Shown piece by piece: positions 12,418-46,423 of a stretch of 64,000 nucleotides of DNA. The notes beneath the pieces were generated by a model that had not been told where the DNA came from, did no database searches, and saw only the letters and a program-made list of their open reading frames with translations. The DNA is taken from contig CAZRDB010000002.1 in assembly GCA_964598695.1 (NCBI GenBank), positions 30,857 to 94,856 on the forward strand, read 5' to 3'. Each line of letters begins with the position of its first letter. Position 1 is the first letter of the stretch. The position numbers were made by a program, and so were the translations under genes. Origin of the DNA: an uncultured Armatimonadia bacterium. GTDB lineage: Bacteria; Armatimonadota; Zipacnadia; UBA1398.

Positions 12418-12642
12418 CTAGGGAGCGCCGCTGCCGGCCTCGTTCGTCGCGCCGCCCTCGTAGGTCGCCGCTCCCTCGCGCGCGGCGGGAGGAGCGGAGC
12501 GCTCCGCCTGGGTCGCGGCGCGGGTGACCTGCTCCGTCTCGCCCGGGGGCTCCAGGGCGGGAGGCTTGCGACAGCCGGCGAGCAGGGCGGCGGCGAGGAG
12601 GGCGAGCAGGGCCGTGCGGCGGATGATCTGTTGTCTCAGCAT
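12418..12642 (-). CDS. Small lipoprotein (74 aa), function unknown
   Basis: [24 protein letters not shown] contains lipobox LAGC. AAGGAG lies upstream of the ATG at 12642. The gene sits between the two DUF1559 genes; the longer 12418..13593 track ORF overlaps the upstream gene and is rejected. Confidence 0.45.
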
Positions 12643-12671
12643 GGGATCTCCTTGGTCCGGTCGAGGCGGGC

Positions 12672-26659: not shown

Positions 26660-27648
26660 GCCGCGCCCTCCTCTCGCACACGGTCGGAGAAGTGGCAGGC
26701 CACGGTATGGCCGTGCGCCACTTCGCGGACGGATGGGAACTCCCGCCGGCAGATCTCCTCGGCATAGCCGCAGCGCGGGTGGAACGGGCAGCCGGGGGGG
26801 ACCTCCCACAGCCCCGGGACCGTTCCCGGGATCGCCTCCAGGCGCTGGACCTCGCCCGAGGCGACACGGAGGCGGGGGACCGAACGCATCAGCCCGCGCG
26901 TGTACGGGTGACCGGGACGCGCGAACAGCGGCCGCACCGGCGCGCTCTCGACCATCCGGCCCGCGTACATCACGGTGACCCGGTCGCAGACCTGCGCGAC
27001 CACCCCGAGGTTGTGGGTGACGAGAAGCACCGCCGCCCGCGTCTCATCGCGCAGCCGCCGCATGAGCGTGAGAATCTGCGCCTGGACCGTCACGTCGAGC
27101 GCTGTTGTCGGCTCGTCGGCGATCAGCAGGCGCGGCTCGCAGACGAGTGCCATGGCGATCATCGCCCGCTGTCGCATCCCGCCGCTCAACTGGTGCGGAA
27201 ACTCGCGCACCCGGCGCGCCGGGTCGGGGATCCCGACCTGGCCAAGGACCTCGATCACCCGGCCCCGCGCCTGTGCCCACGACTGGCCGCGATGCAGCAC
27301 GAGCGGCTCCGAGAGCTGCTCACCGATGGTGATACACGGGTTGAGCGAGGTCATCGGCTCCTGGAAGATCATGCTGACCTTGTCGCCCCGGATCCGACGC
27401 ATCTCGCGCTCCGAGAGGGCCGTCAGGTCGACGCCGTCGAGGCGCAGAAGATCGGCGCGGACCCGGCCCGAGGGGTGGATCAGTCGCGGGATCGAGAGGC
27501 ATGTCTGGCTCTTGCCGCAGCCCGACTCGCCCACCAGGCCCACGATCTCGCCCGGCTCCACGGTCAGCTCGGCGCCGTGGACCGCGCGCAGCACGCCGTC
27601 GAGCGTTCGGAAGTCGATTGTCAGCCCCTTCATCTCGAGGAGCGGCAT
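26656..27648 (-). CDS. Oligopeptide/dipeptide ABC transporter ATP-binding protein (OppD/DppD-like)
   Basis: GESGCGKSQT, LSGGMRQR and a C-terminal PPGCPFHPRC extension. Confidence 0.85.
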   Translation of the reverse strand: MPLLEMKGLTIDFRTLDGVLRAVHGAELTVEPGEIVGLVGESGCGKSQTCLSIPRLIHPSGRVRADLLRLDGVDLTALSEREMRRIRGDKVSMIFQEPMTSLNPCITIGEQLSEPLVLHRGQSWAQARGRVIEVLGQVGIPDPARRVREFPHQLSGGMRQRAMIAMALVCEPRLLIADEPTTALDVTVQAQILTLMRRLRDETRAAVLLVTHNLGVVAQVCDRVTVMYAGRMVESAPVRPLFARPGHPYTRGLMRSVPRLRVASGEVQRLEAIPGTVPGLWEVPPGCPFHPRCGYAEEICRREFPSVREVAHGHTVACHFSDRVREEGAA

Positions 27649-31370: not shown

Positions 31371-32474
31371 CTAGGGATCGAGCGTCCCCGGACGCAAGCC
31401 GAGAGGCAGCGCCGCCGGACGCTCGCAGGTGCTCTCGATCGGCAGCCACGCGCCCTGCTCCCACGCGTCGGTGAACGAGCACATCAGGTCGAGCACATGG
31501 TACGCGAGTTGTCCCGAGGCCCGGTGCTTGCGCCCCGAGCGCGCCGCGTAGGCGAGATCGGCGACGCCGATGCCGCGGTAGTTCTCGGAGTAACCGTGTG
31601 ACAGCGGCACCTCGCGCCAGCCGTCGGCGCCCGGACGCCAGATCTCGACCGGCCCGCCGAAGGTGTTCGGGTCGGGGACGCTCAGCGTGCCCTCCTCGCC
31701 GTAGATCTCGATCCGCGGTAGGCGGCCCGCCCAGACATCGAAGCTCGTGGTGATGGTGACCAGGGGGCCGCTCTCGAACTCCATGATCCCGTTCACGTGG
31801 GTGGGCACCTCGACGGCCACCCGCGTGCCATAGTGCGGCTGGCTGGTGATCAGGCGCTCGGGGAACGACTTCGTCGCCGACGCGGCCACGCGCTTGACCG
31901 GCCCCAACAGGTTGACCAGCGCGGTCAGGTAGTACGGGCCCATGTCGAACATCGGGCCGGCGCCGGGCTTGTAGAAGAACTCGGGATCGGGGTGCCAGCC
32001 CTCGGGGCCGCGGCTGAGCATGAACGCCATGCCGCCGATCGGACGGCCGATCCAACCGTCGTCGATCAGCTTGCGGCACGTCTGGAGCCCCCCGCCCAGG
32101 AACGTGTCCGGGGCGCATCCCACGCGGAGGCCCTGCTCGGCCGCCCTGGCGAGCACCGCCTTGCCGCCGGAGCGCTCCACCGCGAACGGCTTCTCGGCGT
32201 AGGCGTGCTTGCCGGCCTCGACCGTCGCCAGCGAGATCTCGGCGTGGACCTTCGGGATGGTCAGGTTGAGCACCACCTCGACCTCGGGGTCGGTCAGCAT
32301 CTCGTCGAGCGTCACCGCCCGCGCGATCGCGAACTCCTCGGCCTTCGCCTTCGCGCGCTCCATCACGAGGTCGCTGCATGCCACGACCTCCAGGTTCTCG
32401 AAGCGCTTCGCGGCCGCGAAGTACGCGCCGCAGATGTTGCCGCACCCCACCACTCCGACCTTCGTCTTCTCCAT
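31371..32474 (-). CDS. Gfo/Idh/MocA-family NAD(P)-dependent oxidoreductase
   Basis: Rossmann N-terminus MEKTKVGVVGCGNICGAYFAAA...EKP. ATG top coordinate 32474 with gaggagagg upstream. The 930-aa track ORF is a GC-artefact extension. Confidence 0.85.
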   Translation of the reverse strand: MEKTKVGVVGCGNICGAYFAAAKRFENLEVVACSDLVMERAKAKAEEFAIARAVTLDEMLTDPEVEVVLNLTIPKVHAEISLATVEAGKHAYAEKPFAVERSGGKAVLARAAEQGLRVGCAPDTFLGGGLQTCRKLIDDGWIGRPIGGMAFMLSRGPEGWHPDPEFFYKPGAGPMFDMGPYYLTALVNLLGPVKRVAASATKSFPERLITSQPHYGTRVAVEVPTHVNGIMEFESGPLVTITTSFDVWAGRLPRIEIYGEEGTLSVPDPNTFGGPVEIWRPGADGWREVPLSHGYSENYRGIGVADLAYAARSGRKHRASGQLAYHVLDLMCSFTDAWEQGAWLPIESTCERPAALPLGLRPGTLDP

Positions 32475-32633
32475 GCTGACCTCTCCTCGCCGCCGGCGGC
32501 CGCGCGCCCCTCCCGCGATCCCGCCGTCCGCTATTCGCTCCCCCCGGCCCGATGCACCTCCAGGCGCGCCCGCGCAGGTCCGCGCGCCCCGCGTGCGGAA
32601 GGACGCGATGCCCCCAGGGGCGGAAGGAGCTGG

Positions 32634-33548
32634 TTGCCCGTGCGTCGGGTCCGGATCGCCCTGCTCTGCCTCGTGGCACTGATGGTGCTGACCGCCGGCT
32701 GCCTGCCCAAGTGGGTCCAGCGCGCCCGCGGGCCCCAGACCGGAGCCTCCTCGTCCGACGCGCGGAACACCGAGCCGCCGGCCGCCGAGTCCACCCCTGC
32801 CAAGCCCCCCGCCGAGACGCCGGCCCGCACCACACGGCCGAGCGGCGCCAAGGGCGGCAAGCTGAGCGACCGGCTGAAGGGCGGCTCCTCCGAGGGCTCC
32901 GACGGCCCCGTCGATCTGCCGAACCTCGATCCGATGGAGTTCGCGGCCGAGGGCTACGAGCCGACCGCCACGGGCGAGGCCGACATCGACGACGACGGCG
33001 TCAGCGAGGGCCTGGTCGTCTACCAAGGCTTCGAGGTCGACTCGGTGGGGGAGCCCGTCCGACCCGCCTACATCTCGATCCTCCGCTCGGAGGGCTCGGG
33101 CTGGCAGGAGTGGACGAAGATCGTCGGCGAGAACGATGAGCGGTTCGCCGACAGCGACTCGCTCGTCCGCGCCGGCGACATCAACGGCGACGGCACGCCC
33201 GAGCTGATCCTGCGGTTCTTCGGCTTCGGCGTCTCCAGCCGGCCCGAGAACGTGTACGTCTACCAACTCCTCGACGACGGCTCCGTCACCCCCGTCATCG
33301 TCGGCGGATGCGTCGAGATGACCAGCAAGGACGGCTTCGTGGTGGCCGAGGTCGACTCCACGACGCCCGGCCCTGAGCTGATCTTCGCCCTCGTGCAGCC
33401 GAGCGACGGTCCGGAGTCCGACCCGCACCGCTTCGCCGTCGAGGCCTGGGGCTGGAACGGCTCGGAGTACGAGTACGTGAGCGGCGAGACGACCTCCACC
33501 ACCTACGCGAGCGGATCCGACGCCATCCAGGCCGTCTACGGCGTGTAG
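32634..33548 (+). CDS. Lipoprotein of unknown function (acidic, Thr/Ser-rich linker plus beta-rich C-terminal domain)
   Basis: LPVRRVRIALLCLVALMVLTAGC has lipobox LTAGC. TTG at 32634 (ggaagga 5 nt upstream) or GTG at 32640. Confidence 0.5.
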   Translation: MPVRRVRIALLCLVALMVLTAGCLPKWVQRARGPQTGASSSDARNTEPPAAESTPAKPPAETPARTTRPSGAKGGKLSDRLKGGSSEGSDGPVDLPNLDPMEFAAEGYEPTATGEADIDDDGVSEGLVVYQGFEVDSVGEPVRPAYISILRSEGSGWQEWTKIVGENDERFADSDSLVRAGDINGDGTPELILRFFGFGVSSRPENVYVYQLLDDGSVTPVIVGGCVEMTSKDGFVVAEVDSTTPGPELIFALVQPSDGPESDPHRFAVEAWGWNGSEYEYVSGETTSTTYASGSDAIQAVYGV

Positions 33549-33573
33549 CTCGCCCTTTCCCCCCCCGATCTCC

Positions 33574-33599
33574 CGCGGAGGCCCGGCCGGGCCTCCGCG
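33574..33599 (+). terminator. Perfect 26-nt GC palindrome (about 11-13 bp stem) after the lipoprotein gene
   Basis: cgcggaggcccggccgggcctccgcg equals its own reverse complement. Lies 26 nt after the stop at 33548. Confidence 0.6.
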
Positions 33600-33630
33600 C
33601 ACGCCTGTGCAGGATTCGGTACGATCCGAC

Positions 33631-33680
33631 ATGTATAGTATGCATGATCGGTATGCATAGGCGGTGATCGCACAATGCAT
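33631..33680 (+). promoter_or_regulatory. AT-rich island with three ATGCAT palindromic hexamers (putative promoter/operator of the AbrB-like gene)
   Basis: About 80 bp of roughly 45% GC in a roughly 70% GC genome: ...atgtatagTATGCATgatcggTATGCATaggcggtgatcgcacaATGCATgac. The third hexamer contains the start codon and no Shine-Dalgarno is obvious. Confidence 0.45.
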
Positions 33681-33959
33681 GACAAAGCAGACCCCGAACC
33701 CGAGGGCGCGTGGAGCGACGAGAGCTACTGCGGCTTCGTGACGGTCGGTGAGCGGGGCCAGGTCGTTATCCCGGCCGCCCTGCGACGCGACTGCGCGATC
33801 AACCCGGGCGATCGCCTCCTCGCGGCCCGCGCCCCGGTCGGGGGAGGGGTCGTCTTCGCCAAGATGGAGGTCCTCCGCGATCTGCTCGCGCGCATGGGTC
33901 TGCCGACCGGACCGCCCGACCGCCCTGAGCGGCCCAAGGCCAAGGGAGGCGGGAAGTGA
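33675..33959 (+). CDS. AbrB/MazE/SpoVT-family (swapped-hairpin) DNA-binding protein
   Basis: GFVTVGERGQVVIPAALRRDCAINPGDRL matches the AbrB/MazE N-terminal domain pattern. 94 aa; the stop overlaps the TolC start (GTGA). Confidence 0.7.
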   Translation: MHDKADPEPEGAWSDESYCGFVTVGERGQVVIPAALRRDCAINPGDRLLAARAPVGGGVVFAKMEVLRDLLARMGLPTGPPDRPERPKAKGGGK

Positions 33960-35320
33960 TCCTCTCACGGCACGCCGCGCTCGCCTGTGTCCTGCTCGCG
34001 CCGCTGGCCCGTGCGGCGGCGGGGCAGGAGGCGCCCCTCGCCGCGCAGGCCCCGGAGCCCTGGGGCCTCGCCGACTGCATTCGGTACGCGGTGGAGCACT
34101 CGCCCCGGCTGCACGCCGAACGTCACCGGCTGCGGGCCGCGCGCGAAGCCGTGGCTGAGGCACGGGCCGGCGACGACGCCCGGACCGTCGTGCAGGGAAC
34201 GGGCGCGGCCCAGGCCCCCGAGCTGAGCATTACCCTCCCCGAGGACCGCGTCGTCCGCGTCAGCCCGGCCACCCAGGCCTCACTGTCGATCTCGACGGTG
34301 CTGCCGCTCGACGTCTCCCACTACTGGCGCTATCGCCGCGACGGCGCCACGGAATCAGCCAGCGCCCAGGCCGAGCAGCTCCGACAGGCGGCCGAGCAGC
34401 TCGTGCTCGACACGATCACCGGCTACTACCGCGTGCTCATGGCCGCGGCCGGGCTCGATGCCGCGCGCGAGGCCGTGGGCGTGGCCGAGGCCGAACTGGC
34501 TCGGACGCGGGCCCGCCTCGCGGCCGGCGTCGCGACTCCCGCCCTGCTCGCGGTCGCCGAGTCCGCTCTCACCGACGCCCGCACCAAGCTGACCGCGCTG
34601 GAGCTGGCCTTCGCCGACGCCAACGCGTTCCTGGCCACGACCCTCGGCCTTCCCACCGAGCAGGCGCCCCCGCTGCTCGACGCCCCCCTCGAGCTGGACA
34701 CCTCGACGCCGTGGGAGGAAGCCCGCGATCTCGCGCTCCAGGAGCGCCCTGAGCTTGCCGGGCTCGTCCACTCGGCCGCCGCGCTCGGAGCCACCGCCCA
34801 GGCGATCCGCGCCAGCACGAAGCCGAGCCTCAGCCTCAGCGCCGGTGGAGGGCTCAACACGCCGGGCAGCCTCGCGAGCCCGACACGGAGCCTCCGTGCC
34901 GGCCTCGCCTTCTCCTGGCCCCTCGGCGGCAATGGATCGGCCCGCGCACAGGCCCGCAGCGCCGAGGAGCGTCGCGAGGCCGTGCTGCAGGATCTCGAGC
35001 AGACCCGGCTGCTCGTCGAGACGAAGGTCTACACCGCGATCAGCCGCCTCGAGGAGGTCGCCGCGACGCTCGAGGCCGACCGGTCGGCTCTCGCCGAGGC
35101 GGAGGCACTCGCCCTGCAGACACGGCTGCGCCACGAGGCCGGCGTCGCGACCGCCCAGGAGGTCGCCGCGCGGGCCTGCGCCGTGAGTGCCGCGCGGGCA
35201 CGGCTCCATGCCGACGAGTGCGACCAGTCGCTCGCCCGAGCTGAGTGGGCGCGGGCCCTGGGCATCCTGAGCCGTCTGGCGTTCGGTCCGCCGGCGCACA
35301 CGCGGGAGGTACAGCCATGA
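33956..35320 (+). CDS. TolC-family outer-membrane efflux protein
   Basis: Signal peptide MILSRHAALACVLLAPLARAAAGQ. Two OEP repeats with ...DTITGYYRVLMAAAGLDAAREAV... GTG start with agggagg upstream. Confidence 0.8.
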   Translation: MILSRHAALACVLLAPLARAAAGQEAPLAAQAPEPWGLADCIRYAVEHSPRLHAERHRLRAAREAVAEARAGDDARTVVQGTGAAQAPELSITLPEDRVVRVSPATQASLSISTVLPLDVSHYWRYRRDGATESASAQAEQLRQAAEQLVLDTITGYYRVLMAAAGLDAAREAVGVAEAELARTRARLAAGVATPALLAVAESALTDARTKLTALELAFADANAFLATTLGLPTEQAPPLLDAPLELDTSTPWEEARDLALQERPELAGLVHSAAALGATAQAIRASTKPSLSLSAGGGLNTPGSLASPTRSLRAGLAFSWPLGGNGSARAQARSAEERREAVLQDLEQTRLLVETKVYTAISRLEEVAATLEADRSALAEAEALALQTRLRHEAGVATAQEVAARACAVSAARARLHADECDQSLARAEWARALGILSRLAFGPPAHTREVQP

Positions 35321-37167
35321 AGTCACGACTGCGCATCGTGGTGCCCGTCTTGCTGCTCGCGGCCGCGGCCGTGGGGCTCGCCTACGCCCGCCACGCCCGC
35401 ACCGTCGCCGACGCCGAGGGTGCCGTCTCCGGCAGCGGGACGGTCGAGGCGACCGAGGTCGCCGTCTCGGCCGAGGCCAACGGGCGCATCACGGTCCTGC
35501 GGGTCGAGGAGGGGCAGGCCGTCGAGGAGGGCGCGGTCATCGCCGAGCTGGCGCACAGCGTGCTCGACGCCCAGCAGAAGCAGGCCGAGGCCGCCGCGTA
35601 TGCCGCCCGCATGCAGCTCGCCGAGGTCGCGCGGGGCGCCCGCTCCGAGGAAGTCCGCGCCCGCGCCGCCACGTTGAAGGAAGCGAGTGCCTCGCTGCTC
35701 GGCGCGCAGACCCAGCGCAACATCGCCCGCGAGTCGCTGGAGCATCCCACCGACCTGCAGGCGGCCGTCGACAGCGCCCAGACCCAGATCGCCCTTGCCG
35801 AGGCGCAGCTCGCCGCCTCCTCGGCGCTGCGCGACGAGGCGGTCAGCGGCCCCCGGGCCGAGGAGATCGCCTCAGCGCGCGCCGCGCTCGCCCAAGCCGA
35901 TGCCGCCGTGAGCGGAGCCGTCGCCGAGTGCGCTGAAGCCGAGCGGGCCTGCGCCGCCCGCGAGGCGGCCCGCACGCCGATTACCAAGGCCGAGACCGAA
36001 CTCGCGATGGGGGAGGCGGCCCGTGCCGCCGCCGAAGCGCGCCGCCAGCAGGTGGAGAACCCGCCCCGGCCCGCGAAGCGCGAGCAGGTGACGCACCAGA
36101 TCGCCGCCGCGCGCTCGGCCTACTCCCTGGCGGAGCAGAACGCCTCCCGCGTGCAGCGCCTGCGCGAGGCCGATGCGGCGACCGATCAGGAACTCGACTC
36201 GGCGGTTACCGCCCGCGACCAGGCGCTCGCGAGCCTCAACACGGCCGAGGCCGCCCTGGCCGACCTCGACGCCGGCGCCCGCGAGGCCGAACGACGGGAG
36301 GCCGCCGCGGGCGTCGCCCAGGCCACCGCCGGTGTCCAGGGCGCGCGCGCGCAGATCGCGAACGCGGGCCACGAGCAGGAGGCCCAGGTCGCCCAGGCCC
36401 GCCAGCAGCTTGCCCGCGCCCGGTCGGCCGTCGAGCAGGCCCGCGAGGTTCGCGCGCAGGCGGCCTCCCGCCTCGCGCTGCTGGAGGTCGGCACCCGGCC
36501 GGAGCAGCTCCGCCAGGCCGAGGCCCAGCTTACGGGGTCCGACGCCGGGCTTCTCGGCGCGCGCACGGCTCTCGCCAACGCCAGCACCGCCCACGCTCAG
36601 CGGTTCGCCCAGCGCCAGCAGGTTGCGGCCACCGAGCAGGCGGTCGGCGTCGCCGAAGCAAAGGTCCAGGCGGCCCGTGCCCAGCTCGATCTCGCCCTCG
36701 CGGGCAACACCGACGAGCTGGTTCAGGTCGCGCAGGGCAAGGCGATGGAGGCCGACGCGGCCGTCGAGGTCGTGAAGGCCCGCGTCAACGACTGCTACAT
36801 CCGGGCCCCGCGCGCCGGCACCATCAGCGAGATCGTGTTGCGCGAGGGCGAGATGGTCTCGCCCGGAGCCACGATCGTCCGGATGCTCGACCTCTCGAGT
36901 CTGTGGGTGCGGGTCTACCTGCCGGTCAAGCAGTTCGGCAAGGTCCGGCTCGGAACGACGGCCCAGGTTCGGACGGACGCCGACCCGAGCAAGGCCTACC
37001 CGGGCCAGGTCGTCGCCGTCAGCGACGAATCGGAGTTCACGCCCCGCAACACGCAGACCGTCGAGGAGCGCGTGAAGCAGGTGTTCTGGGTGAAGGTCGG
37101 CGTTGGCGACGGCCAGGGCGAACTGAAGCCCGGCATGCCCGCCGACGTCGCACTGGCCGAGCGCTAG
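35317..37167 (+). CDS. HlyD-family periplasmic adaptor (membrane fusion protein) with an exceptionally long coiled-coil hairpin
   Basis: N-terminal TM anchor MKSRLRIVVPVLLLAAAAVGLAY, barrel-sandwich start GTVEATEVAVSAEANGRITVLRVEEGQAVEEGAVIAEL, then roughly 450 aa of A/E/R/Q-rich heptad sequence, and a C-terminal beta-barrel IRAPRAGTISEIVLREGEMVSPGATIVRMLD. ATGA overlap with the TolC gene. Confidence 0.8.
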   Translation: MKSRLRIVVPVLLLAAAAVGLAYARHARTVADAEGAVSGSGTVEATEVAVSAEANGRITVLRVEEGQAVEEGAVIAELAHSVLDAQQKQAEAAAYAARMQLAEVARGARSEEVRARAATLKEASASLLGAQTQRNIARESLEHPTDLQAAVDSAQTQIALAEAQLAASSALRDEAVSGPRAEEIASARAALAQADAAVSGAVAECAEAERACAAREAARTPITKAETELAMGEAARAAAEARRQQVENPPRPAKREQVTHQIAAARSAYSLAEQNASRVQRLREADAATDQELDSAVTARDQALASLNTAEAALADLDAGAREAERREAAAGVAQATAGVQGARAQIANAGHEQEAQVAQARQQLARARSAVEQAREVRAQAASRLALLEVGTRPEQLRQAEAQLTGSDAGLLGARTALANASTAHAQRFAQRQQVAATEQAVGVAEAKVQAARAQLDLALAGNTDELVQVAQGKAMEADAAVEVVKARVNDCYIRAPRAGTISEIVLREGEMVSPGATIVRMLDLSSLWVRVYLPVKQFGKVRLGTTAQVRTDADPSKAYPGQVVAVSDESEFTPRNTQTVEERVKQVFWVKVGVGDGQGELKPGMPADVALAER

Positions 37168-37206
37168 AGCAGTTCTCGAAAGCTCCCGCGCGCAAGAGCG
37201 AAGAGC

Positions 37207-37291
37207 GACAACCTGCGGAGGGTTGCCCCTCCGCACCACCCTAGGCGGTTGCCGTCGGGGCCAAAGCCCGCGAGCCCCGACGACAACCGCT
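37207..37291 (+). repeat. REP-like palindromic element, copy A (9-bp-stem hairpin tgcggaggg-ttgc-ccctccgca plus a second 18-bp imperfect hairpin)
   Basis: gacaacctgcggagggttgcccctccgcaccaccctaggcggttgccgtcggggcc, then aaagcccgcga, then gccccgacgacaaccgct. The 16-nt arm (37210-37225) and 19-nt arm (37244-37262) are identical to the reverse complement of copy B at 43061-43076 and 43025-43043. Confidence 0.7.
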
Positions 37292-37402
37292 CAGGTCGAG
37301 CAGAAGGACGAGCACTCGACAGACCGCCTCTCGCCGCTGGTACCTGCAGGGACTTTCGGGAACCACTCGAGCGAGCCGCGGGACGGGAAGGACAGGGGAG
37401 TC

Positions 37403-38824
37403 GTGGAGGCGCCGCTCTGGCACAAGGTCGCCGCCGGTGTGATCTTCGCCGCCGCCTATGTGCTGATCGCGACCGACCGCTTCGACAAGACCAAGGTGGC
37501 GTTGCTCGGCGCCGTCGCCATGCTGCTGCTCGGCGTCGTCTCCCAGCACGATGCCTTCGGCGTGCATGAGCGAAGCCTCAGCGTGGTCGAGCACGTCGCC
37601 GCCGCCGAGCCCTCGCTCGGGGAGGAGGGCGTGGTCGAGGACCTCGAGCGGGCCGGGCTCCGCGACGTGCCCGGCGTGGACTGGAACACGATCGTCCTGC
37701 TGCTCGGCATGATGATCTACGTGGGGGTTCTCGGCCGCACCGGCGCGCTCCAGTGGGTCGCAGTCCGGTGCGCGAAGCTCGCGCGCGGGGAGCCCGTCGT
37801 CATCATGGTGCTCCTCGCGAGCGTGACCGGCATCGTCTCGGCCGCGCTCGACAACGTCACGACGATCCTTCTCATCGCGCCGGTCACGCTGCTGCTGTGT
37901 GAGGCCTTGGGCGTCAGCCCGATCCCCATGCTCATCGCCGAGGTGCTCGCGTCGAATATCGGCGGGACGGCGACGCTGGTGGGCGATCCGCCGAACATCA
38001 TCATCGCCTCGGCGGCCGGGTTCGGGTTCACGGAGTTCCTGATCCACCTCGCGCCCGTGGTCGTGGTCCTGCTGGTCGCCTTCGGTCCCTACGCCATCCT
38101 CATCTGGGGCCCGGAGCTGCGGGCCTCGCCCGAGCGCAAGCGCGCCGTGCTCGCGCTCGACGAACGCAAGGCGATCCGCGACCCGCGCTTGCTGCGGAAG
38201 TGCCTCTGGATCGGCGGGCTCATCCTCGCCGGGTTCCTGGTGCAGGGGCCGCTCGGCTGGGGTCCCGCGACCGTTGCGCTCGCCGGCGCCGTGCTGCTTC
38301 TGGCGATCGCGCGGCTGCCGCTCGAGGACGGCCTGCGCGGCGTCGAGTGGGCCACGCTGTTCTTCTTCATCGGCCTGTTCATCATGGTCGGCGGGTTGGT
38401 GAAGGTCGGCCTCGTCCAGGCCGCGAGCCAGTGGATCCTCGTGCGCTTCGGCGGCAACACGCTCGTGCTGGCCCTCGTCATCCTGTGGTTCAGCGCGATC
38501 GCCAGCGCGGTGGTCGACAACATCCCCTACGTCGCGACCATGTGTCCGCTGATCAACAGCCTCGCGCGGGCGATCACCGACCTCCCGGCCGCCGAGGCCG
38601 CGCACGACCCGAGGATCCTGCCGCTGTGGTGGGCGCTCGCCCTCGGAGCCTGCCTGGGTGGGAACGGGACTCTGGTCGGCGCGTCGGCCAACGTCGTCGC
38701 CGCGGGACTGGCCGAGAAGGCAGGATCGCGGATCACCTTCCGCGAGTTCACCCGGCACGGGGCGCCGGTGGCGCTCTCGACCGTCGGCGTCTCCACGATC
38801 TACCTGCTGATCCGCTATCTGTAG
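37403..38824 (+). CDS. ArsB/NhaD-superfamily (CitMHS-like) anion/cation permease
   Basis: LWHKVAAGVIFAAAYVLIATDRFDKTKVALLGAVAMLLLGV and a duplicated permease repeat, about 12 TM. Proposed GTG start at 37403 (gggaagga upstream). The track ORF's TTG start at 37223 lies inside the REP hairpin and is rejected. Confidence 0.65.
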   Translation: MEAPLWHKVAAGVIFAAAYVLIATDRFDKTKVALLGAVAMLLLGVVSQHDAFGVHERSLSVVEHVAAAEPSLGEEGVVEDLERAGLRDVPGVDWNTIVLLLGMMIYVGVLGRTGALQWVAVRCAKLARGEPVVIMVLLASVTGIVSAALDNVTTILLIAPVTLLLCEALGVSPIPMLIAEVLASNIGGTATLVGDPPNIIIASAAGFGFTEFLIHLAPVVVVLLVAFGPYAILIWGPELRASPERKRAVLALDERKAIRDPRLLRKCLWIGGLILAGFLVQGPLGWGPATVALAGAVLLLAIARLPLEDGLRGVEWATLFFFIGLFIMVGGLVKVGLVQAASQWILVRFGGNTLVLALVILWFSAIASAVVDNIPYVATMCPLINSLARAITDLPAAEAAHDPRILPLWWALALGACLGGNGTLVGASANVVAAGLAEKAGSRITFREFTRHGAPVALSTVGVSTIYLLIRYL

Positions 38825-38841
38825 AAGAGGAGCGCGGCGCG

Positions 38842-39792
38842 GTGAGCGACTCCGCCCCCCGACAACACGCGGTCGAGACGACGGGGCTCTCGAAGCTCTT
38901 CGGGAGCGTCCGCGCCGTGGACGGCGTCGATCTGTCGGTGCGCGCTGGCGAGGTCTTCGGCCTGATCGGCGCCGACGGCGCCGGCAAGACCACGCTGCTC
39001 CGCATGTTGTGCGGTGTGCTGAGCCCGGACGGCGGCGAAGCGCGCGTGGCCGGCCGCGACGTGCTCCGGGAGCCTGAAGCCGTCAAGCGTCGCATCGGCT
39101 ACCTCTCCCAGGCGTTCAGCCTCTACGCCGATCTCACGGTCGAAGAGAACGTCGACTTCTGCGCCGACCTGTACTGCACGCCCCGGACGGAGGTGAAGCG
39201 GCTGAAGGACGACATGCTCACGATGACCAACCTCGCGCCCTTCCGCCGCCGCCTCGCGGGCCGTCTGTCGGGCGGCATGAAGCAGAAGCTGGGGCTGATC
39301 TGCGCCCTGATCCATCGGCCTGAGGTGCTGATCCTCGACGAGCCCACGACGGGTGTCGACCCCATCTCGCGCCGCGACTTCTGGCAGATCCTCGCCGACC
39401 TGCCCGCCCAGGGCGTCACCGTGCTGCTCAGCTCCCCGTACATGGATGAGGCCTCCCGTTGCCACCGCCTCGCGGTCATGCACCGGGGCAAGGTGCTCGC
39501 GACCGGCACGACCGAGGAGCTGCAGCGGGCCGTCGAGGGCGCCGTGCTCGAGATCGTGACCACCGAGGTCCGCCCGGCCCTCGATGCCCTCGCCGGCCTC
39601 GAGGGCCTCCTCAGCCTCACCCCCTTCGGCGATGCGCTCCATGCGCGCGTCCGTTCCGAGCAGGGGGCCATCGAGCGAGCGGGGGCGGCGCTGGCCGCGG
39701 CAGGCGTTCCCTGCGCGAGCATCGCCGTCGTGGAGGCGAGCCTCGAGGATGCCTTCCTCGAGGCCGTCGGCCGGGCGGGTGCGAGCCGATGA
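38842..39792 (+). CDS. ABC transporter ATP-binding protein (ABC-2/YbhF-type, first of two)
   Basis: Walker A GADGAGKTT, signature LSGGMKQK, Walker B LILDEPT. GTG at 38842 with gaagaggag upstream. Confidence 0.85.
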   Translation: MSDSAPRQHAVETTGLSKLFGSVRAVDGVDLSVRAGEVFGLIGADGAGKTTLLRMLCGVLSPDGGEARVAGRDVLREPEAVKRRIGYLSQAFSLYADLTVEENVDFCADLYCTPRTEVKRLKDDMLTMTNLAPFRRRLAGRLSGGMKQKLGLICALIHRPEVLILDEPTTGVDPISRRDFWQILADLPAQGVTVLLSSPYMDEASRCHRLAVMHRGKVLATGTTEELQRAVEGAVLEIVTTEVRPALDALAGLEGLLSLTPFGDALHARVRSEQGAIERAGAALAAAGVPCASIAVVEASLEDAFLEAVGRAGASR

Positions 39793-40739
39793 GCGCGCCT
39801 CTCGCGATCGACATCCGCGACCTGACCAAGCGCTTCGGCGGCTTCACCGCCGTCGACCAGGTGAGCCTGACCGTCGAGCCCGGGGAGGTCTTCGGCTTCC
39901 TGGGCCCCAACGGGTGCGGCAAGTCGACCACCATCCGCATGCTGTGCGGCTTGCTGCGCCCCTCCAGCGGGCACGCCAGCGTCGCCGGGCTCGACGTCGC
40001 GCGGCAGTCGGAGGCCGTCCGGCGGCGGATCGGCTACGTCGCCCAGTTCTTCTACCTCTACGGCGATCTCACCGTCGCGGAGAACATGGACCTCTACGGG
40101 GGGATCTACGGCGTTTCCGACGCGATCCTCCGCGAGAGGATCGGCCACTGGCTCGACCGGCTCGACCTCGCCGAGATCCGCGACGTGCCGGCCGACGCCC
40201 TCTCGACCGGCGTCCAGCGACGGCTCTCGCTGGCCTGTGCCGTCCTGCACGAGCCCCCCGTCCTGCTGCTCGACGAACCTACGAGCGGGGTCGACCCGGC
40301 CGCGCGGCGCGAGTTCTTCGCGGTGATCGGGGAGCTGGCCGAGCGCGGCGCCGCGATCCTGGTCACGACGCACGTGATGGACGAGGCCGAGCGCTGCAAC
40401 CGGCTCGCGCTGATGAACCGGGGACGCATCCGGGCGCTCGGCACGCCGGCCGAGATCAAGCAGAGCTGCCCGGGCGCCTTCTATGCGCTGCGCGTGGCCG
40501 AGGTCAAACGCACCGTCGAGCGCGCGCGCGAGCACCCCGCCGTCTGGCACGCCCATCCCTTCGGCGTCGAGGTCCAGCTCCAACTCACGGAGGCCAACCC
40601 GGCCGTCGCCGAGGAGGTCTGCCGCTGGCTCCGCGAGCAGGGGATCGACTGCGGTCCGCCGCGGCCGGTCCGCGCGACGATCGAGCACACCTTCCTCAGC
40701 CTGCTGGGGCAGGACGCGGACGAAGGGGTGGGAGCGTGA
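39789..40739 (+). CDS. ABC transporter ATP-binding protein (second of two)
   Basis: GPNGCGKST, LSTGVQRR, LLLDEPT. ATGA overlap with the previous ATPase. Confidence 0.85.
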   Translation: MSAPLAIDIRDLTKRFGGFTAVDQVSLTVEPGEVFGFLGPNGCGKSTTIRMLCGLLRPSSGHASVAGLDVARQSEAVRRRIGYVAQFFYLYGDLTVAENMDLYGGIYGVSDAILRERIGHWLDRLDLAEIRDVPADALSTGVQRRLSLACAVLHEPPVLLLDEPTSGVDPAARREFFAVIGELAERGAAILVTTHVMDEAERCNRLALMNRGRIRALGTPAEIKQSCPGAFYALRVAEVKRTVERAREHPAVWHAHPFGVEVQLQLTEANPAVAEEVCRWLREQGIDCGPPRPVRATIEHTFLSLLGQDADEGVGA

Positions 40740-41860
40740 GGCGCCTCTGGGCCGTGGCCCGCAAGGAGTTCGTTCACCTCAGGCGCGACCCCCGCAGCCT
40801 GATCGCGGCCGTGATCCTCCCCGTCACCCTGCTGCTGCTGTACGGATTCGCCGTCGACTTCGACCTGAAGTACCTGCCCTTCGCGGTGGTCGACCACGAC
40901 CACACGCAGGCCTCGCGGCGCGCGATCGAGGCGGTCTCCACGATCCATGGCTTCCACAACATCGGGCCCCTCGAGAGCGCCGACGAGGCCGAGGAGGTCT
41001 TCGCGCGCCGGCGGGCGATGGCCGTCGTGGTGATCCCGGCCGGCTTCGAGTCCGACCTGATCGGCCGTCGACCGGCCTCGCTCCAGATCCTCATCGACGG
41101 CGCCAACAGCACGATGGCCTCGACGGCGGTCGCCTACCTGAACGGCGCGGCGGAGGCGATCGGGGCCCGGCTCGTGGTCCAGACGCTCTCGACGACGGCC
41201 TTCCGGATGCCTCGCTCGTCGGTGGAGGCGCGCGTCCGGGTGCTGTACAACCCGAACCTGAGAAGCCGGGTCTTCCTCGTCCCCGGCCTCATCGCCATCA
41301 TCCTCATGCTCATGGCGGCGCTGCTCACCTCCGGGACCGTGGTCCGCGAGCGCGAGCGGGGGAGCTTCGAGCTGCTCGCGGCCAGCCCGCTCAGCCCGCT
41401 CGAGATGCTGCTCGGCAAGCTGCTGCCCTACTGGATCCTCTCGGCCCTCGACGTGGTCCTCGTGGTCGCGACGGGCTGGATCGTCTTCGGCGTCGCGCCC
41501 AAAGGCAATCTGCTCCTGTTGTTCGCCGTCTCGACCGTCTTCGTCGCCTCGGCCCTCTCGCTCGGGCTGCTGTTCTCCTGCATCATGCGCACGCAGCAGC
41601 TCGCGTTCCTCATCTCGTTCATCACGACGGTCCTGCCCACCATGCTGCTCTCGGGCTTCGCCTTCCCCGTCCGCAACATGCCGCGGCCGCTGCAATTGCT
41701 GGCGCAGATCTTCCCCGCCACCCACTACATCCCGGTCGTCCGCGCCGTGATCCTCAAGGGCTCCGGCTGGGACGTCATCCGGATCCGCGTCGCCGTGCTC
41801 ACCCTGATCGCGACGATCCTCGTCTGGATCGCGCTCCGGAGCTTCCGCAAGACCCTGTGA
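40736..41860 (+). CDS. ABC-2 family transporter permease (YbhS/YbhR-like)
   Basis: GTGA overlap with the ATPase gene. N-terminus VRRLWAVARKEFVHLRRDPRSLIAAVILP typical of ABC-2 permeases; 6 TM. Confidence 0.8.
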   Translation: MRRLWAVARKEFVHLRRDPRSLIAAVILPVTLLLLYGFAVDFDLKYLPFAVVDHDHTQASRRAIEAVSTIHGFHNIGPLESADEAEEVFARRRAMAVVVIPAGFESDLIGRRPASLQILIDGANSTMASTAVAYLNGAAEAIGARLVVQTLSTTAFRMPRSSVEARVRVLYNPNLRSRVFLVPGLIAIILMLMAALLTSGTVVRERERGSFELLAASPLSPLEMLLGKLLPYWILSALDVVLVVATGWIVFGVAPKGNLLLLFAVSTVFVASALSLGLLFSCIMRTQQLAFLISFITTVLPTMLLSGFAFPVRNMPRPLQLLAQIFPATHYIPVVRAVILKGSGWDVIRIRVAVLTLIATILVWIALRSFRKTL

Positions 41861-41879
41861 GAGGAAGGGAGGTCGGCCG

Positions 41880-43001
41880 ATGCGTTTCCGCAAGCTGCTG
41901 AAGAAGGAGGTCCGCCAGTTCGTGCGCAACACCTACATGCTGCGCATGGCGATCCTCATGCCGATCTTCCAGACCCTGCTGCTCTCCTTCGCCGCGAACA
42001 CCGACGTCGTTCATGTCCCCGTTGTGGTCTACGACGAGGACGCCTCGCGCCACAGCCGCGAGTTCGCGGCCAAGATCGACTCGACCGTCACCTTCGACGT
42101 CACCCGCTACGTGCTGAGCCCCGCCGCGGTCGAGCGTCAGCTCGAGACCGGCGCGGCCGAGGTCGGCCTGGTCATCCCCCGCGGCTTCGACCGCGACCTC
42201 GAGCGCGGCGGCGCGACCGCCCAGGTGCTCGTCAACGGCGCCGACTCGACCACCGCGCTGGCCGCGGGTAGCTACCTCGGCCAGGTTGCGGCCGGCTACA
42301 ACACCGCCGTGCGCACCGAGCTGGCCGAGCGGCGCGGACCGTTGCCGCAGTTGCCCTCGATCCGCGCCGAGACCCGCGTTCTCTACAACCCCGACCTGCG
42401 AAGCCTGTGGTTCATGGCCCCCGGCGTCATGGCGATGGTCCTGCTGATCCTCATGCAGAACTTCAGCGCTCTGACCGTGGCCCGCGAACGCGAGCTGGGG
42501 ACCTTCGAGCAACTCGTCATCACCCCGGTCCGGTCGTGGGAGGTGCTGCTCGCGAAGCTCGTACCCCTCGCAGCGGTCGGGATCCTCGGCGGCGTGGTCG
42601 TCTGTCTGCTGGTCGTGTTTCTGCTCGGGGTCCCCCTGCGCGGCTCCATCCCCGCCCTCGCGGCCGCGACGCTGTCCTTCGTGGCCGCGAGCCTGGGTCT
42701 CGGCCTGCTGGTCTCCACGGTCTCCGCCAACCAGCAGCAGGCGCAGATGATGAACTTCTTCCTGATCTTCCCCTCGGTGCTGCTCTCGGGCTTCATCTTC
42801 CCGGTGGAGAACCTCCCTGTGCCGCTGTGGTGGGTGAGCCGGTTCGTGCCGCTCACCTACTACCTGGAGGTCATCCGTGGCGTGTTCCTGCGGGGCGCGG
42901 GGGTCGGTGCTCTCCTGACCCCGCAGATCCTCCCCCTCGCCGGGCTCGCCCTGGCCTTCTTCGCGCTCGGCGCCGTCCGTTTCCGCAAGCGCCTCGACTA
43001 G
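41880..43001 (+). CDS. ABC-2 family transporter permease (second copy)
   Basis: MRFRKLLKKEVRQFVRNTYMLRMAILMPIFQTLLL is an ABC-2 N-terminus. gaagggagg RBS. Confidence 0.8.
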   Translation: MRFRKLLKKEVRQFVRNTYMLRMAILMPIFQTLLLSFAANTDVVHVPVVVYDEDASRHSREFAAKIDSTVTFDVTRYVLSPAAVERQLETGAAEVGLVIPRGFDRDLERGGATAQVLVNGADSTTALAAGSYLGQVAAGYNTAVRTELAERRGPLPQLPSIRAETRVLYNPDLRSLWFMAPGVMAMVLLILMQNFSALTVARERELGTFEQLVITPVRSWEVLLAKLVPLAAVGILGGVVVCLLVVFLLGVPLRGSIPALAAATLSFVAASLGLGLLVSTVSANQQQAQMMNFFLIFPSVLLSGFIFPVENLPVPLWWVSRFVPLTYYLEVIRGVFLRGAGVGALLTPQILPLAGLALAFFALGAVRFRKRLD

Positions 43002-43120
43002 AGCGGCTCCCGGAAGTCGCTGCAGGCCCCGACGGCAACCGCCTCGGGTGGTGGGTGGGCCAACCCTCCGCAGGTTGCCGCTCGTCGCGCGTGCGCGCGG
43101 GAACTCGCGAGAGCCGCTCT
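43000..43120 (-). repeat. REP-like palindromic element, copy B (inverted relative to copy A), itself flanked by a 10-bp inverted repeat
   Basis: Core 43025-43079 is ggccccgacggcaaccgcctcgggtggtgggtgggccaaccctccgcaggttgcc. Its reverse complement matches copy A across two perfect blocks. Flanking 10-bp IR: agagcggctc (43000-43009) and gagccgctct (43111-43120). Confidence 0.65.
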
Positions 43121-43266
43121 CGAGCCGCCCGCCATCCGCCTCCGCCCTTGACGCCTCCCGGCCGCGCGCAGCAGGATACTGGTCAGACGCTGCGAAGCTC
43201 TAAGCTCGGACCGGCGGGTCGGGACTCCCGCCCCCCCGGAGAGCGGACTCGCGGAGGAGCACACAC

Positions 43267-43662
43267 ATGGCCAAGGAGAAGGTCCTGGTCGTCGATGACG
43301 AACGCGCGGTCGTCATGGTCATCGAGACCAACCTGCGGATCGCCGGCTACCAGGTCGTGACGGCCTACAACGGCCGCGAGGCCCTGGAGAAGATCCGCGC
43401 CGAGCATCCGGCGTGCGTGCTGCTCGACGTGATGATGCCCGAGATGAACGGCTGGGACGTGCTGCGCGAGATCCGCGCCGACGCGACGATCGAGCGTACG
43501 CAGGTCATCATGCTCACCGCGATGGCCGAGGACTCCGATATCACCAAGGGCTATGAACTCGGCGTCGACCACTACCTCACGAAGCCGTTCGAGCCGGAGG
43601 AACTCCTCGAGTTCGTCGAGCGCGTCATCGAGATGGGCAAGGACGAGGAGTTGATCGACTAG
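43267..43662 (+). CDS. Stand-alone response-regulator receiver domain (CheY-like)
   Basis: VLVVDDE...LLDVMMPEMNGWDVL...LTAM...LTKPF shows the conserved Asp pocket (DD, D, T, K). ggaggagcacacac upstream of the ATG. Confidence 0.85.
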   Translation: MAKEKVLVVDDERAVVMVIETNLRIAGYQVVTAYNGREALEKIRAEHPACVLLDVMMPEMNGWDVLREIRADATIERTQVIMLTAMAEDSDITKGYELGVDHYLTKPFEPEELLEFVERVIEMGKDEELID

Positions 43663-43697
43663 GACCCGGCCGCTCGCGTCGTGTCCGCTCCCTCGCC

Positions 43698-45716
43698 ATG
43701 AGCCAGTCCCCCCTCCCTCGTCCCCTCGTGCTGGGGATCGACACCGGCGGCACCTACACCGACGCGGCGCTCCTCGAACGGGCGACCGGCCGGGTCCTGG
43801 CCAGCGCCAAGGCGCTCACGTCCTACCCAGACCCCTCGGCCGGGATCCTGGGCTCCGCCCGTGCCCTCGGCGTCCCCCTCGACCGCGTCGCCCGCGTCTG
43901 CCTCTCCACCACGCTCGCGACCAACGCCCTCGTCGAGGGTCTCGGGGCGCGCGTGGGGCTCCTGCTCCTGGGCTTCAGCCCCGACCTCTTCGCGCGGCCC
44001 GAGTACGCCTGCCGGCTGCCCGACGGTCCGCGCGCCTTCCTCGGAGGGGCGATGACCGCCGCGGGAGCCGAGCTGGCGCCGCTCGACGAGGCCGCCGTCG
44101 CCCGAACCCTCACCGAGTGGCGCGGCCGTGTCGACGCACTCGCCGTCTGCGGGATCTTCGCGACCCGGAACCCGGAGCATGAGCTGCGTGTGCAGGCCCT
44201 GGCGGCCGAGACCATGGCCGTACCCCTGGTCCTGAGCCACGCGATCTCCGACCGACTCGACGCCGTCGCCCGCGCCGCGACCTGCGCCTTCAACGCCCGT
44301 CTGCTGCCGGTCGTACACCGGTTCCTCGACGCGCTGCGGCCAGCGCTGACCCCCCTCGGCCTTGCCGAGGATGTCCCGCTGTTCCTCGTCCGCGGCGACG
44401 GATGCCTGATGACCGAGGACCTCTCGCGGCGCAAGCCGCTCGAGACCTTCCTCTCCGGCCCGGCGGCCTCGGCGATGGGTGCGGCCTACCTCGCTGGGCG
44501 ACAGCGCGCCGTCGTCGTCGACGTGGGCGGCACCACGAGCGACGTGGCGCTCCTCGCCGGCGGCGAGGTGCTGCTCTCGCGCGAGGGAGCGGTCGTCGGC
44601 GGCCTGCAGACCCACATCCCCGGGCTACACGGCACCACTCTGGGGCTCGGCGGCGACAGCCACGTTCGGATCCTGCCCGACGGCTCCCTCGCCGTCGGCC
44701 CCCGCCGGGTCGTCCCCGTCTCACTCGCGACCCGTACGCTGGGCCTTCCGGCCGAGGCGGCCCGGAGCCGCACCGTCTGGCAGCGCGAGGGGTTGCCCGA
44801 CTACGTTGTCGGCACCGGCTGCGAGCTGCCGGACGCCACGCGACTCGAGCAGAGCCTGCTGGAGGCCGTGCGCGAGGGCCCGCTGCCCGTCGAGAAGCTC
44901 GCGAAGCGCCTCGGCCTCGCCTCACCGATCCTCCTGCCCCTCGCCCGCCTGCAGGCACAGCGGGCCGTGCTGCCCATTGGACCGACCCCCACCGACCTCC
45001 TGGCCGCTGTCGGAGAGATCACGCATGTGGACGGCGAGACCGCCCGGAGCGTTGCCGAGCGGCTGGCCGCCAGCCTGGAGGCCACCCCGGAGGAGCTGGC
45101 GGAGCGGCTCCGCGCGACGGTCGGCGCCACCCTCGCGGACGCCGTGGCGCGGACCTGCCTCGCGCGCTCCCACCCGGCCGCGATCTGGGACCGCGGGGCC
45201 GCCACGACGCTCGAGCCGCCGCGGCCCGAGGCCTTCCTCGCCCTGACCGCGCGCCTCGAGACCCCCCTCGTGGGCCTCGGCGCCCCGGCCGGTCGGCTCG
45301 TGCCCCGGGCGGCCGAGCTGCTGGGCACGGCGTGCATCGTCCCGACCGGCGCCGAGGTGGGCGGCGCCGTCGGCGCCGCCGTCGCGTCGGTGCGAGGCGT
45401 GGTCACGGTCACCGTGCGGGCGGCCTACGGGGCTGCCGGAATCAGCCACTACGTGGTACACTCCCGTCTCAAGCCGGAGTTCTTCGAGGAGCGCGAGCCG
45501 GCGCTCGAGCGCGCCCGCCGGATCGCCGAGCGACTCGCCCGCGAGGAGGCCCTCGCCGGCCCGAACGCCGAAGAGGTCACCGTGACCTTCGAGTCGGAGG
45601 AGTCGCTCGCACGCGACGCCGGCGGCTCGGCGCTCTGGCTGGAGTCCTCCATCCGCGCCACCGCTCGGATGGTCGAGCGCCTCGGCGAACCTGACCCGTC
45701 TGGGAGCACGCGATGA
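43698..45716 (+). CDS. Hydantoinase/oxoprolinase-A-like ASKHA-fold ATPase family protein
   Basis: LGIDTGGTYTDAAL and VVVDVGGTTSDVALL are the two ASKHA phosphate-binding motifs of the hydantoinase_A type. 672 aa; no HyuB-like partner nearby. Confidence 0.55.
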   Translation: MSQSPLPRPLVLGIDTGGTYTDAALLERATGRVLASAKALTSYPDPSAGILGSARALGVPLDRVARVCLSTTLATNALVEGLGARVGLLLLGFSPDLFARPEYACRLPDGPRAFLGGAMTAAGAELAPLDEAAVARTLTEWRGRVDALAVCGIFATRNPEHELRVQALAAETMAVPLVLSHAISDRLDAVARAATCAFNARLLPVVHRFLDALRPALTPLGLAEDVPLFLVRGDGCLMTEDLSRRKPLETFLSGPAASAMGAAYLAGRQRAVVVDVGGTTSDVALLAGGEVLLSREGAVVGGLQTHIPGLHGTTLGLGGDSHVRILPDGSLAVGPRRVVPVSLATRTLGLPAEAARSRTVWQREGLPDYVVGTGCELPDATRLEQSLLEAVREGPLPVEKLAKRLGLASPILLPLARLQAQRAVLPIGPTPTDLLAAVGEITHVDGETARSVAERLAASLEATPEELAERLRATVGATLADAVARTCLARSHPAAIWDRGAATTLEPPRPEAFLALTARLETPLVGLGAPAGRLVPRAAELLGTACIVPTGAEVGGAVGAAVASVRGVVTVTVRAAYGAAGISHYVVHSRLKPEFFEEREPALERARRIAERLAREEALAGPNAEEVTVTFESEESLARDAGGSALWLESSIRATARMVERLGEPDPSGSTR

Positions 45717-46423
45717 GCAGCCACGGGAGCCTCGAGTCTCCATCGCCGGCGCCGCCGGGCCAGAGGGCCGGCGACGTCGTTACCGGCCTGTTCGTCGCCG
45801 CGCTGCTCGTCTCCAACGTCATCACCGTCAAGCCGCTCAGCTTGTTCGGCTGGCCGATCGACGCCGGCACCATGCTCTTCCCGATCACCTACATCTTCGG
45901 CGACATTCTCACCGAGGTCTACGGCTACGCCCGGGCCCGGCGGACGATCTGGATCGGGCTCGCCGCCAACCTGCTCCTCGCCCTGTGCTGCCAGATCGCG
46001 GTCGCCCTGCCCGCGGCCGCCGACTGGACCGACCAGGCCGCCTACGCGGCGATCCTCGGCCCCACCAAGCGGATCGTCCTCGCGAGCCTCGCGGCCTACT
46101 GGTGCGGCGAGTTCGCCAACAGCCTCATCCTGGCCAAGCTCAAGGTCGCGACCCGGGGCCGCCATCTGTGGCTCCGCACTATCGGGAGCACGATCGTCGG
46201 GCAGTCGATCGACTCCTTCGTGTTCGTCTTCGGGGCCTTCTGGCACGACTGGCCCGACGGTGTGGTCCGCCAGGTCTTCCTCGCGAATGTCGTGCTCAAG
46301 ACCCTCTACGAGGCCTGTGCGACACCGCTGACCTACGCCGCGGTCGCCTACCTCAAGCGCCTCGAGGGCATCGACGTCTACGATCGCCGCACCCGCTTCT
46401 CGCCCTTCCGGTTCTCGGCCTAG
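45713..46423 (+). CDS. yhhQ: Queuosine-precursor transporter YhhQ/DUF165 (VUT family)
   Basis: VSNVITVKPLSLFGWPIDAGTMLFPITYIFGDILTEVYGY is the hallmark YhhQ segment. ATGA overlap with the upstream gene. Confidence 0.7.
   Translation: MSSHGSLESPSPAPPGQRAGDVVTGLFVAALLVSNVITVKPLSLFGWPIDAGTMLFPITYIFGDILTEVYGYARARRTIWIGLAANLLLALCCQIAVALPAAADWTDQAAYAAILGPTKRIVLASLAAYWCGEFANSLILAKLKVATRGRHLWLRTIGSTIVGQSIDSFVFVFGAFWHDWPDGVVRQVFLANVVLKTLYEACATPLTYAAVAYLKRLEGIDVYDRRTRFSPFRFSA

Follow-up and report, generated by a model that had tools for sequence, protein, structure and literature searches.

An efflux operon of YbhGFSR type from an uncultured Armatimonadia bacterium with a probable permease insertion, a head gene of AbrB type and two copies of a small repeat

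The efflux locus and its proteins

The 64-kb stretch of DNA analysed here (called the window below; contig CAZRDB010000002.1 from an uncultured Armatimonadia bacterium, guanine-cytosine (GC) content of 71%) contains an efflux locus of eight co-directional genes, all on the + strand, and two copies of a small repeat. The genes are predicted to encode an ATP-binding cassette (ABC) pump of the type known from Escherichia coli as YbhGFSR, with its periplasmic adaptor and its outer-membrane factor, together with an AbrB-like protein and a secondary permease. A first-pass annotation, made from the sequence alone, had listed these eight genes, and searches against Pfam and NCBIfam bore out the list with one change, the start of the permease gene being moved to the GTG at 37403. 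The features of the locus are as follows (aa, amino acids; nt, nucleotides; OEP, outer-membrane efflux protein):

33600-33674, + strand: upstream region, presumed promoter/operator (from the sequence and the alignment with the related locus L003)
33675-33959, + strand: AbrB/SpoVT-type (AbrB/MazE-like) gene, 94 aa (Pfam PF04014, TIGR01439)
33956-35320, + strand: OEP/TolC outer-membrane factor gene, 454 aa (PF02321, E-value 5.5e-38, two stretches)
35317-37167, + strand: HlyD/YbhG-family periplasmic adaptor gene, 616 aa (PF16576, PF13437)
37163-37372, + strand: repeat copy A, full length, about 210 nt, between the hlyD and permease genes
37403-38824, + strand: CitMHS/ArsB/NhaD-like secondary permease gene, 473 aa (PF03600, 287 bits)
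38842-39792, + strand: ABC ATPase 1 gene (PF00005)
39789-40739, + strand: ABC ATPase 2 gene (PF00005)
40736-41860, + strand: gene of ABC-2 membrane subunit a, YbhR/YbhS-like (PF12698, E-value 3e-53)
41880-43001, + strand: gene of ABC-2 membrane subunit b, YbhR/YbhS-like (PF12698, E-value 4e-45)
42996-43127, - strand: repeat copy B, truncated and inverted, after the last ABC-2 gene

All four start/stop overlaps that had been reported were found, each of 4 nt (GTGA at 33956, ATGA at 35317, ATGA at 39789 and GTGA at 40736). The stop of the permease gene is separated from the start of the ATPase 1 gene by 17 nt, with an AGGAG ribosome-binding site, and the gap between the two ABC-2 genes is 19 nt. 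We consider it fairly probable that the locus constitutes one translationally coupled, co-directional operon for a tripartite ABC-2 efflux pump of the YbhGFSR type.

The start of the permease gene at GTG 37403 (protein beginning with MEAPLWH) is that of an identical 473-aa NCBI protein and of all relatives. A start at TTG 37223 was rejected because it over-extends the open reading frame (ORF) relative to these proteins. The spurious N-terminal extension of 60 codons (37223-37402) arises from repeat copy A, and a similar short ORF (1047-1226) lies inside the copy of the same repeat at another locus, L108, described below; such an element-derived extension of the permease ORF is an annotation trap.

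The architecture had been recognized in the first-pass annotation as that of YbhGFSR with two separate ATPases, and a comparison by BLASTP with the proteins of E. coli K-12 cecR-ybhGFSR supported this assignment, at identities of 27-49%. ATPase 1 aligned with residues 6-310 of YbhF, its N-terminal half (39% identity), and ATPase 2 with residues 330-547, in the C-terminal half (49%). The ABC-2 subunit a was 30-32% identical to YbhR/YbhS over nearly the full length, and the subunit b was 31% identical to them. The adaptor matched YbhG at both ends (27-31% identity), and an internal stretch of it matched the YbhG hairpin in addition. On account of these matches we describe the locus as one of YbhGFSR type with split ATPases and its own TolC. 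The OEP gene lies within the operon; assembly of the pump with this outer-membrane factor, and export through it, are predicted.

The adaptor is long. It matched the NCBIfam model PRK03598 ('secretion protein HlyD'), which we take to be the YbhG model, with 213 bits in three stretches, below the equivalog cut-off of 393. About 420 aa between the two halves of its barrel-sandwich domain form a helical region, and a single-sequence AlphaFold2 model was helical over residues 70-492; because of its low confidence (predicted local distance difference test score of 61, predicted template-modelling score of 0.42), this model was kept out of fold searches. Six motifs resembling G-x-R-x-E-E at helix starts can be read in the protein encoded at 35317-37167; YbhG has about two. 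The adaptor orthologs in other Armatimonadota loci have 610-680 aa, and a literature search on efflux adaptors of Armatimonadetes returned nothing relevant.

The permease and the head gene in related loci

The operon family was surveyed at 80 genome loci around orthologs of the ABC-2 subunit a (36-60% identity), taken with 10-kb flanks, onto which the proteins of the window were mapped by tblastn. The nearest homologs of the ABC-2 subunit come from Armatimonadota. In all 80 loci, neither a CitMHS nor an AbrB match was obtained by tblastn. The ATPase genes directly precede the genes of the subunits a and b in the loci where ATPase genes were covered, and wherever tblastn detected a HlyD match in the closest Armatimonadota loci, 12-33 nt separate it from the first ATPase gene downstream. 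The same arrangement, again lacking the permease, is found in L088, a contig of a metagenome-assembled genome (MAG) at NCBI whose subunit a is 67% identical to that of the window: MarR, OEP, HlyD (620 aa), ATPase, ATPase, ABC-2, ABC-2. Elsewhere in Armatimonadota, the head regulators, read from ORF sequences, are of TetR type (L010, L011, L030 and L032) or MarR-like (L008). Together, these 81 orthologous loci (the 80 and L088) present the order (TetR or MarR)-(TolC)-HlyD-ATPase-ATPase-ABC2-ABC2, and the permease and the AbrB gene occur in none of them; both are confined to the small clade of the window. Two points of the first-pass annotation, the permease gene as an insertion between the adaptor and the ATPases and the AbrB-like gene as a departure from the usual cluster, are supported by this survey, the permease being absent from every one of the orthologous loci and the head position being held there by TetR or MarR.

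In four of the surveyed loci a gene of about 445 aa that looks like TolC/OEP stands between the two ATPase genes (L039 7665-8993, L042 7642-8976, L054 5123-6490 and L058 7642-8976). They belong to Ignavibacteriota, Aminicenantes or unclassified organisms, and the OEP call was made by reading the sequence, not by Pfam. About ten further loci have a similar gap of 1.4 kb between the ATPase genes. Since a TolC-like gene or such a gap is found at this place in some loci, the gene order in this operon family is flexible.

The permease belongs to the ion-transporter superfamily and could be assigned to no named subfamily of it. It scored 287 bits with PF03600 (CitMHS; gathering score 31.9) and 62 bits with PF02040 (ArsB; gathering score 22.2), and its sequence matches in the Protein Data Bank were ArsB (E-value 2e-14) and NadC/VcINDY-type carriers. 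It reached no equivalog or subfamily cut-off in NCBIfam (MamN, 201 bits of the 500 needed; ArsB, 95 of 457; NhaD, 36 of 577; citMHS, 20 of 260). Its GC content at third codon positions is 0.95, like that of the neighbouring genes. Permeases 75% identical to it, in the Logan contigs L002 and L003 and one JGI contig, are embedded in the same gene order as in the window (FG-GAP protein, AbrB, OEP, HlyD of 617 aa, permease, ATPase), with 29 nt between the hlyD and permease genes and 19 nt between the permease and ATPase genes. A 66%-identical homolog has same-strand neighbours at tight spacing. The homologs at 62, 58 and 55% identity, one of them from an Armatimonadia MAG, stand alone in unrelated neighbourhoods, and neighbour-joining groups the operon permeases as one clade beside these stand-alone homologs. 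From these comparisons, the permease gene appears to have been inserted between the adaptor and ATPase 1 genes in this lineage specifically.

What the permease does in this position can be read in several ways. The tight spacing kept across 66-75% protein identity suggests that its co-expression with the pump is under selection, which falls short of proving a shared function. The permease could also be a functionally unrelated hitchhiker, settled in a permissive gap of a well-expressed operon and retained through its expression there. We regard this as a possible reading, if on the whole an unlikely one, and as nearly as plausible as an independent role of a co-expressed permease: outside the clade, the homologs nearest to it stand alone in unrelated contexts, the gene order of the operon family is flexible enough to admit a TolC gene between the ATPase genes in some phyla, and no sequence feature separates operon from stand-alone permeases, the one loop insertion being shared with stand-alone homologs and missing in the homolog P0004. 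The gaps of 13-29 nt, kept across lineages whose proteins are only 66-75% identical, argue against a mere hitchhiker.

The position of the gene immediately after the adaptor gene, conserved in the clade, and the presence in the operon of its own TolC and of an unusually long adaptor could be taken to mean that the permease is a second inner-membrane engine which, driven by protons or sodium, uses the same HlyD/TolC duct, alone or beside the ABC-2 pump. We find this very improbable. At about 60% identity to stand-alone homologs, the permease shows no periplasmic domain that they lack, the complete ABC-2 pump present in the operon accounts for the adaptor, as it does in the 81 loci that lack the permease, and we know of no member of the ion-transporter superfamily that works with a membrane-fusion protein. 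An independent action of the co-expressed permease is more likely than its use of the HlyD/TolC duct.

The AbrB-like protein encoded at the operon's head is recognized by its profiles only marginally (PF04014, 26.2 against a cut-off of 24.7; TIGR01439, 29.9 against 28.3), and the matches extend no further than the first half of the domain model. It is rare, with five clusters in a collection of 5.8 billion proteins at the sensitivity of that search. In all contigs checked (L002, L003, and those of P0242 and P0245) its gene overlaps the next one by 4 nt, and for each of these next genes that has a recorded Pfam hit, the hit is to OEP. The region upstream of it (33600-33674), the presumed promoter/operator, contains a block shared with L003, TGCAGGATTC..ACATGTAT.GTATGC, then GGTGATCG.ACA ahead of the start codon. 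Three ATGCAT hexamers lie at 33630-33680, where the GC content is lowest, just ahead of the abrB start codon and extending over it; this block is conserved only in part in L003. The AbrB-like protein is presumed to be the transcriptional regulator of the operon, and its gene appears to be lineage-specific and to replace the usual TetR or MarR head regulator. By the comparison of loci, the permease gene and the AbrB-type head gene would both be additions to a conserved operon, kept at operon-tight spacing across about 66-75% identity.

The repeat element and the surroundings of the locus

A repeat search in the window returned one inverted pair, 37161-37262 versus 43025-43125, whose copies are 87-90% identical over some 80-97 nt in local alignment; there is no third copy within the 64 kb. 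The full element of about 210 nt, represented by copy A, was defined by aligning three copies, the third of which was found at locus L108 (988-1196), where it immediately follows the stop of an unrelated methyltransferase gene and precedes a further gene. Its identity to copy A is 87% over 124 nt, or 79% when 193 nt are aligned. A metagenome scan with a 17-nt core of the element gave 62 hits, 61 of them chance matches and L108 the sole genuine copy, and the element is absent from 1.6 Mb of other fetched loci. It is non-coding and matches its own reverse complement (nhmmer E-value 6e-16). The terminal inverted repeats of copy A are imperfect, with 16 of 22 positions paired, a score attained by 8 of 2000 random pairs from the window.

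The first-pass annotation had described the permease gene as flanked by repetitive extragenic palindromic (REP)-like elements and had offered recombination at these elements as a way in which a mosaic locus might have been built. Neither idea is supported. Only 17 nt lie between the permease and ATPase 1 genes and the second copy follows the last ABC-2 gene, so that the copies A and B bracket the five-gene block of permease and ABC genes and not the permease alone. Furthermore, L003 and L090 have the identical gene order without the element at the respective sites. In L003 the spacing from hlyD to the permease gene is 29 nt, versus about 235 nt in the window, and the element is absent; in L090 copy B is absent and the sequence past the last ABC-2 stop aligns with the window only beyond about 43127. 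Because these orthologous sites are empty, the elements are insertions, and because relatives have the same gene order without them, the repeats arrived late and did not build a mosaic. The comparison of orthologous loci that had been proposed as a check came out divided: the permease is not universal at this position, but in the relatives that have it there is no association with a repeat.

One could still suppose that the segment between the inverted copies (37163-43127) is a composite mobile or invertible unit that brought the permease and ABC genes together. Its inverted copies, 87-90% identical where aligned and the sole two in 64 kb, bracket exactly the five-gene block, and at its two outer ends stands one and the same terminal repeat, in opposite orientations. 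We hold this to be the least probable of the readings considered, and it is largely refuted by the empty sites: relatives share the hlyD-permease-ATPase junctions and the ABC-2 end without the element, and the ABC genes are in the ancestral position of the 81 loci. A second assembly of the same organism (L001) has an identical copy B junction in the same orientation, and there is on that account no sign of inversion.

The element appears, by these features, to be a small quasi-palindromic mobile repeat resembling miniature inverted-repeat transposable elements (MITEs). A cis-regulatory leader was considered, copy A and the L108 copy both lying upstream of transporter genes in the same orientation, and was rejected: the nucleotide identity of 79-90% between copies, the inversion and truncation of copy B, the terminal inverted repeats and the empty sites all favour a mobile repeat. 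A scan of 33000-44000 with Rfam at E-values up to 1 gave a chance microRNA match as its sole hit, so that the 235-nt spacer contains no riboswitch or leader of a known kind, and RNA folding z-scores (-2.2 for the spacer and -0.6 for copy B) are uninformative at 71% GC. No cognate transposase was identified, and no transposase search was made.

The three known copies start at, or overlap, the stop codon of the upstream gene (37163-37166 cTAGag, 42999-43002 cTAGag and L108 988-991 cTGAag). This suggests either a target preference for the stop-codon sequence or that the element supplies the stop codon. CTAGAG and CTCGAG stand at the two ends of both window copies and may be the element's own; L108 differs there. 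No clear target-site duplication was seen among the three copies. For the biology of mobile elements, a repeat whose three known copies insert exactly at stop codons is a minor curiosity.

Upstream of the operon (31371-33548), the - strand encodes a Gfo/Idh/MocA oxidoreductase and the + strand an FG-GAP-like lipoprotein. L002 and L003 share the FG-GAP gene, and the P0242 contig has both genes; because these upstream genes are syntenic with those of relatives, the whole neighbourhood is conserved in the clade and not the operon alone. Downstream of copy B, on the same strand (43267-46423), follow genes for a stand-alone response-regulator receiver (131 aa), a hydantoinase/oxoprolinase-like protein (672 aa) and a membrane protein of 236 aa that looks YhhQ-like by eye. 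Elsewhere in the window, two direct-repeat pairs (12230-13442 and 26064-27585), about 1 kb apart and 71-77% identical, are probably tandem paralogous genes.

Proposed history and comparison with known systems

We propose, with a probability of roughly 0.6, that a conserved pump operon gained the permease and the AbrB-type head gene in a small sublineage and later received two repeats in the genome of the window. The ancestral operon would have comprised TolC, HlyD, two half-size ATPases and two ABC-2 subunits under a TetR or MarR head. In one small sublineage a permease of the CitMHS/ArsB/NhaD superfamily would have been inserted between the adaptor and ATPase 1 genes, its closest homologs elsewhere being stand-alone permeases, one of them from an Armatimonadia genome, and a small DNA-binding protein of AbrB type would have taken over the head position from TetR/MarR. 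At a later time two elements of about 210 nt would have inserted at stop codons, in this genome alone of those examined.

As to function, the AbrB-like protein may repress its own operon, in an autoregulatory manner, from the conserved upstream block, and TolC, the long adaptor and a heterodimeric ABC-2 pump would form a trans-envelope exporter. The permease would be co-expressed with it and work by itself in the inner membrane, against a related stress or substrate (an ion or a small anion, for instance), much as single-component carriers and tripartite pumps are known to cooperate; docking of the permease to HlyD is not envisaged. Copy A, which could form a hairpin, may partly attenuate the transcript or else stabilise it, and the expression of TolC/HlyD and of permease/ABC could differ as a result.

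Several points weigh against this account. Co-transcription of the genes, their regulation by the AbrB-like protein and the role of the permease are all inferred; a consensus scan for promoters and terminators gave no sigma-70 match and terminator-like sites at chance level; and the genes beside the 66%-identical permease are known from spacing and strand only. In addition, two copies of the element around the same five genes, with none elsewhere in the window, are unlikely as independent random insertions (a rough estimate gives less than 1%). The pair may have a selected function, such as hairpins that bound and stabilise the downstream portion of the mRNA, or pairing of the two inverted copies into a long-range duplex within a single transcript. 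Local hopping is the simplest explanation of the paired copies.

Taken in this way, with the permease gene as an insertion and the repeats as late arrivals, the locus is an example of a conserved ABC-2 efflux operon remodelled in one lineage by a regulator swap, a transporter insertion and a later repeat invasion. Its present value is that of a useful annotation and a small evolutionary case study, and it opens no new question. If the permease cooperates with the pump, the operon would be a natural case of a single-component carrier and a trans-envelope pump on one transcript. Were the permease to dock to the adaptor, the system would be a new class of pump, the first tripartite efflux system with a member of the ion-transporter superfamily and a dual-engine pump running on ATP and an ion gradient.

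Among known systems, the closest studied one is the CecR-YbhGFSR system of E. coli, for which efflux of tetracycline and dyes has been described and a Na+(Li+)/H+ activity proposed (PMC7190983), and whose operon is under the TetR protein CecR (PMC12998191). Both operons have a regulator at the head and, in one unit, a HlyD-family adaptor followed by the ATPase domains and two ABC-2 subunits. They differ in that the ATPase is encoded here by two genes and in E. coli as the fused YbhF, that TolC is encoded in the operon here and is unlinked in E. coli, that the adaptor has 616 aa versus the 332 aa of YbhG, that the head regulator is of AbrB type instead of TetR (CecR), and that an additional secondary permease gene, not found in the E. 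coli operon, stands between the adaptor and ATPase genes. In NCBIfam, the best match of both ATPases and both ABC-2 subunits was RbbA (YhiH; NF033858), in which two nucleotide-binding domains and an ABC-2 domain are fused; the scores of 210-280 bits are far under the equivalog cut-off of 1050, and the corresponding domains are separate proteins here. The operons of other Armatimonadota (e.g., L088 and L008-L012) are much nearer, with the same order of (regulator)-(OEP)-HlyD-ATPase-ATPase-ABC2-ABC2, adaptors of 610-680 aa and subunits a that are 53-67% identical, and they differ by having no permease, TetR/MarR in place of the AbrB gene, and no repeat element.

The permease is like ArsB, NhaD, CitMHS, DASS/VcINDY and MamN in carrying CitMHS and ArsB Pfam domains, and reaches none of the equivalog cut-offs. 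The repeat element shares with MITEs and with REPIN- and Correia-like repeats its small size, its non-coding nature, its terminal inverted repeats, its quasi-palindromic sequence, its presence at unrelated sites and the empty orthologous sites in relatives; it differs by having only three copies known and by the start of all of them at a stop codon, and from a classical REP unit by its length (about 210 nt versus 20-40 nt). Altogether, the locus is a known kind of system that is new in its combination of split ATPases, a TolC encoded within the operon, an AbrB-type head and an embedded permease of the ion-transporter superfamily.

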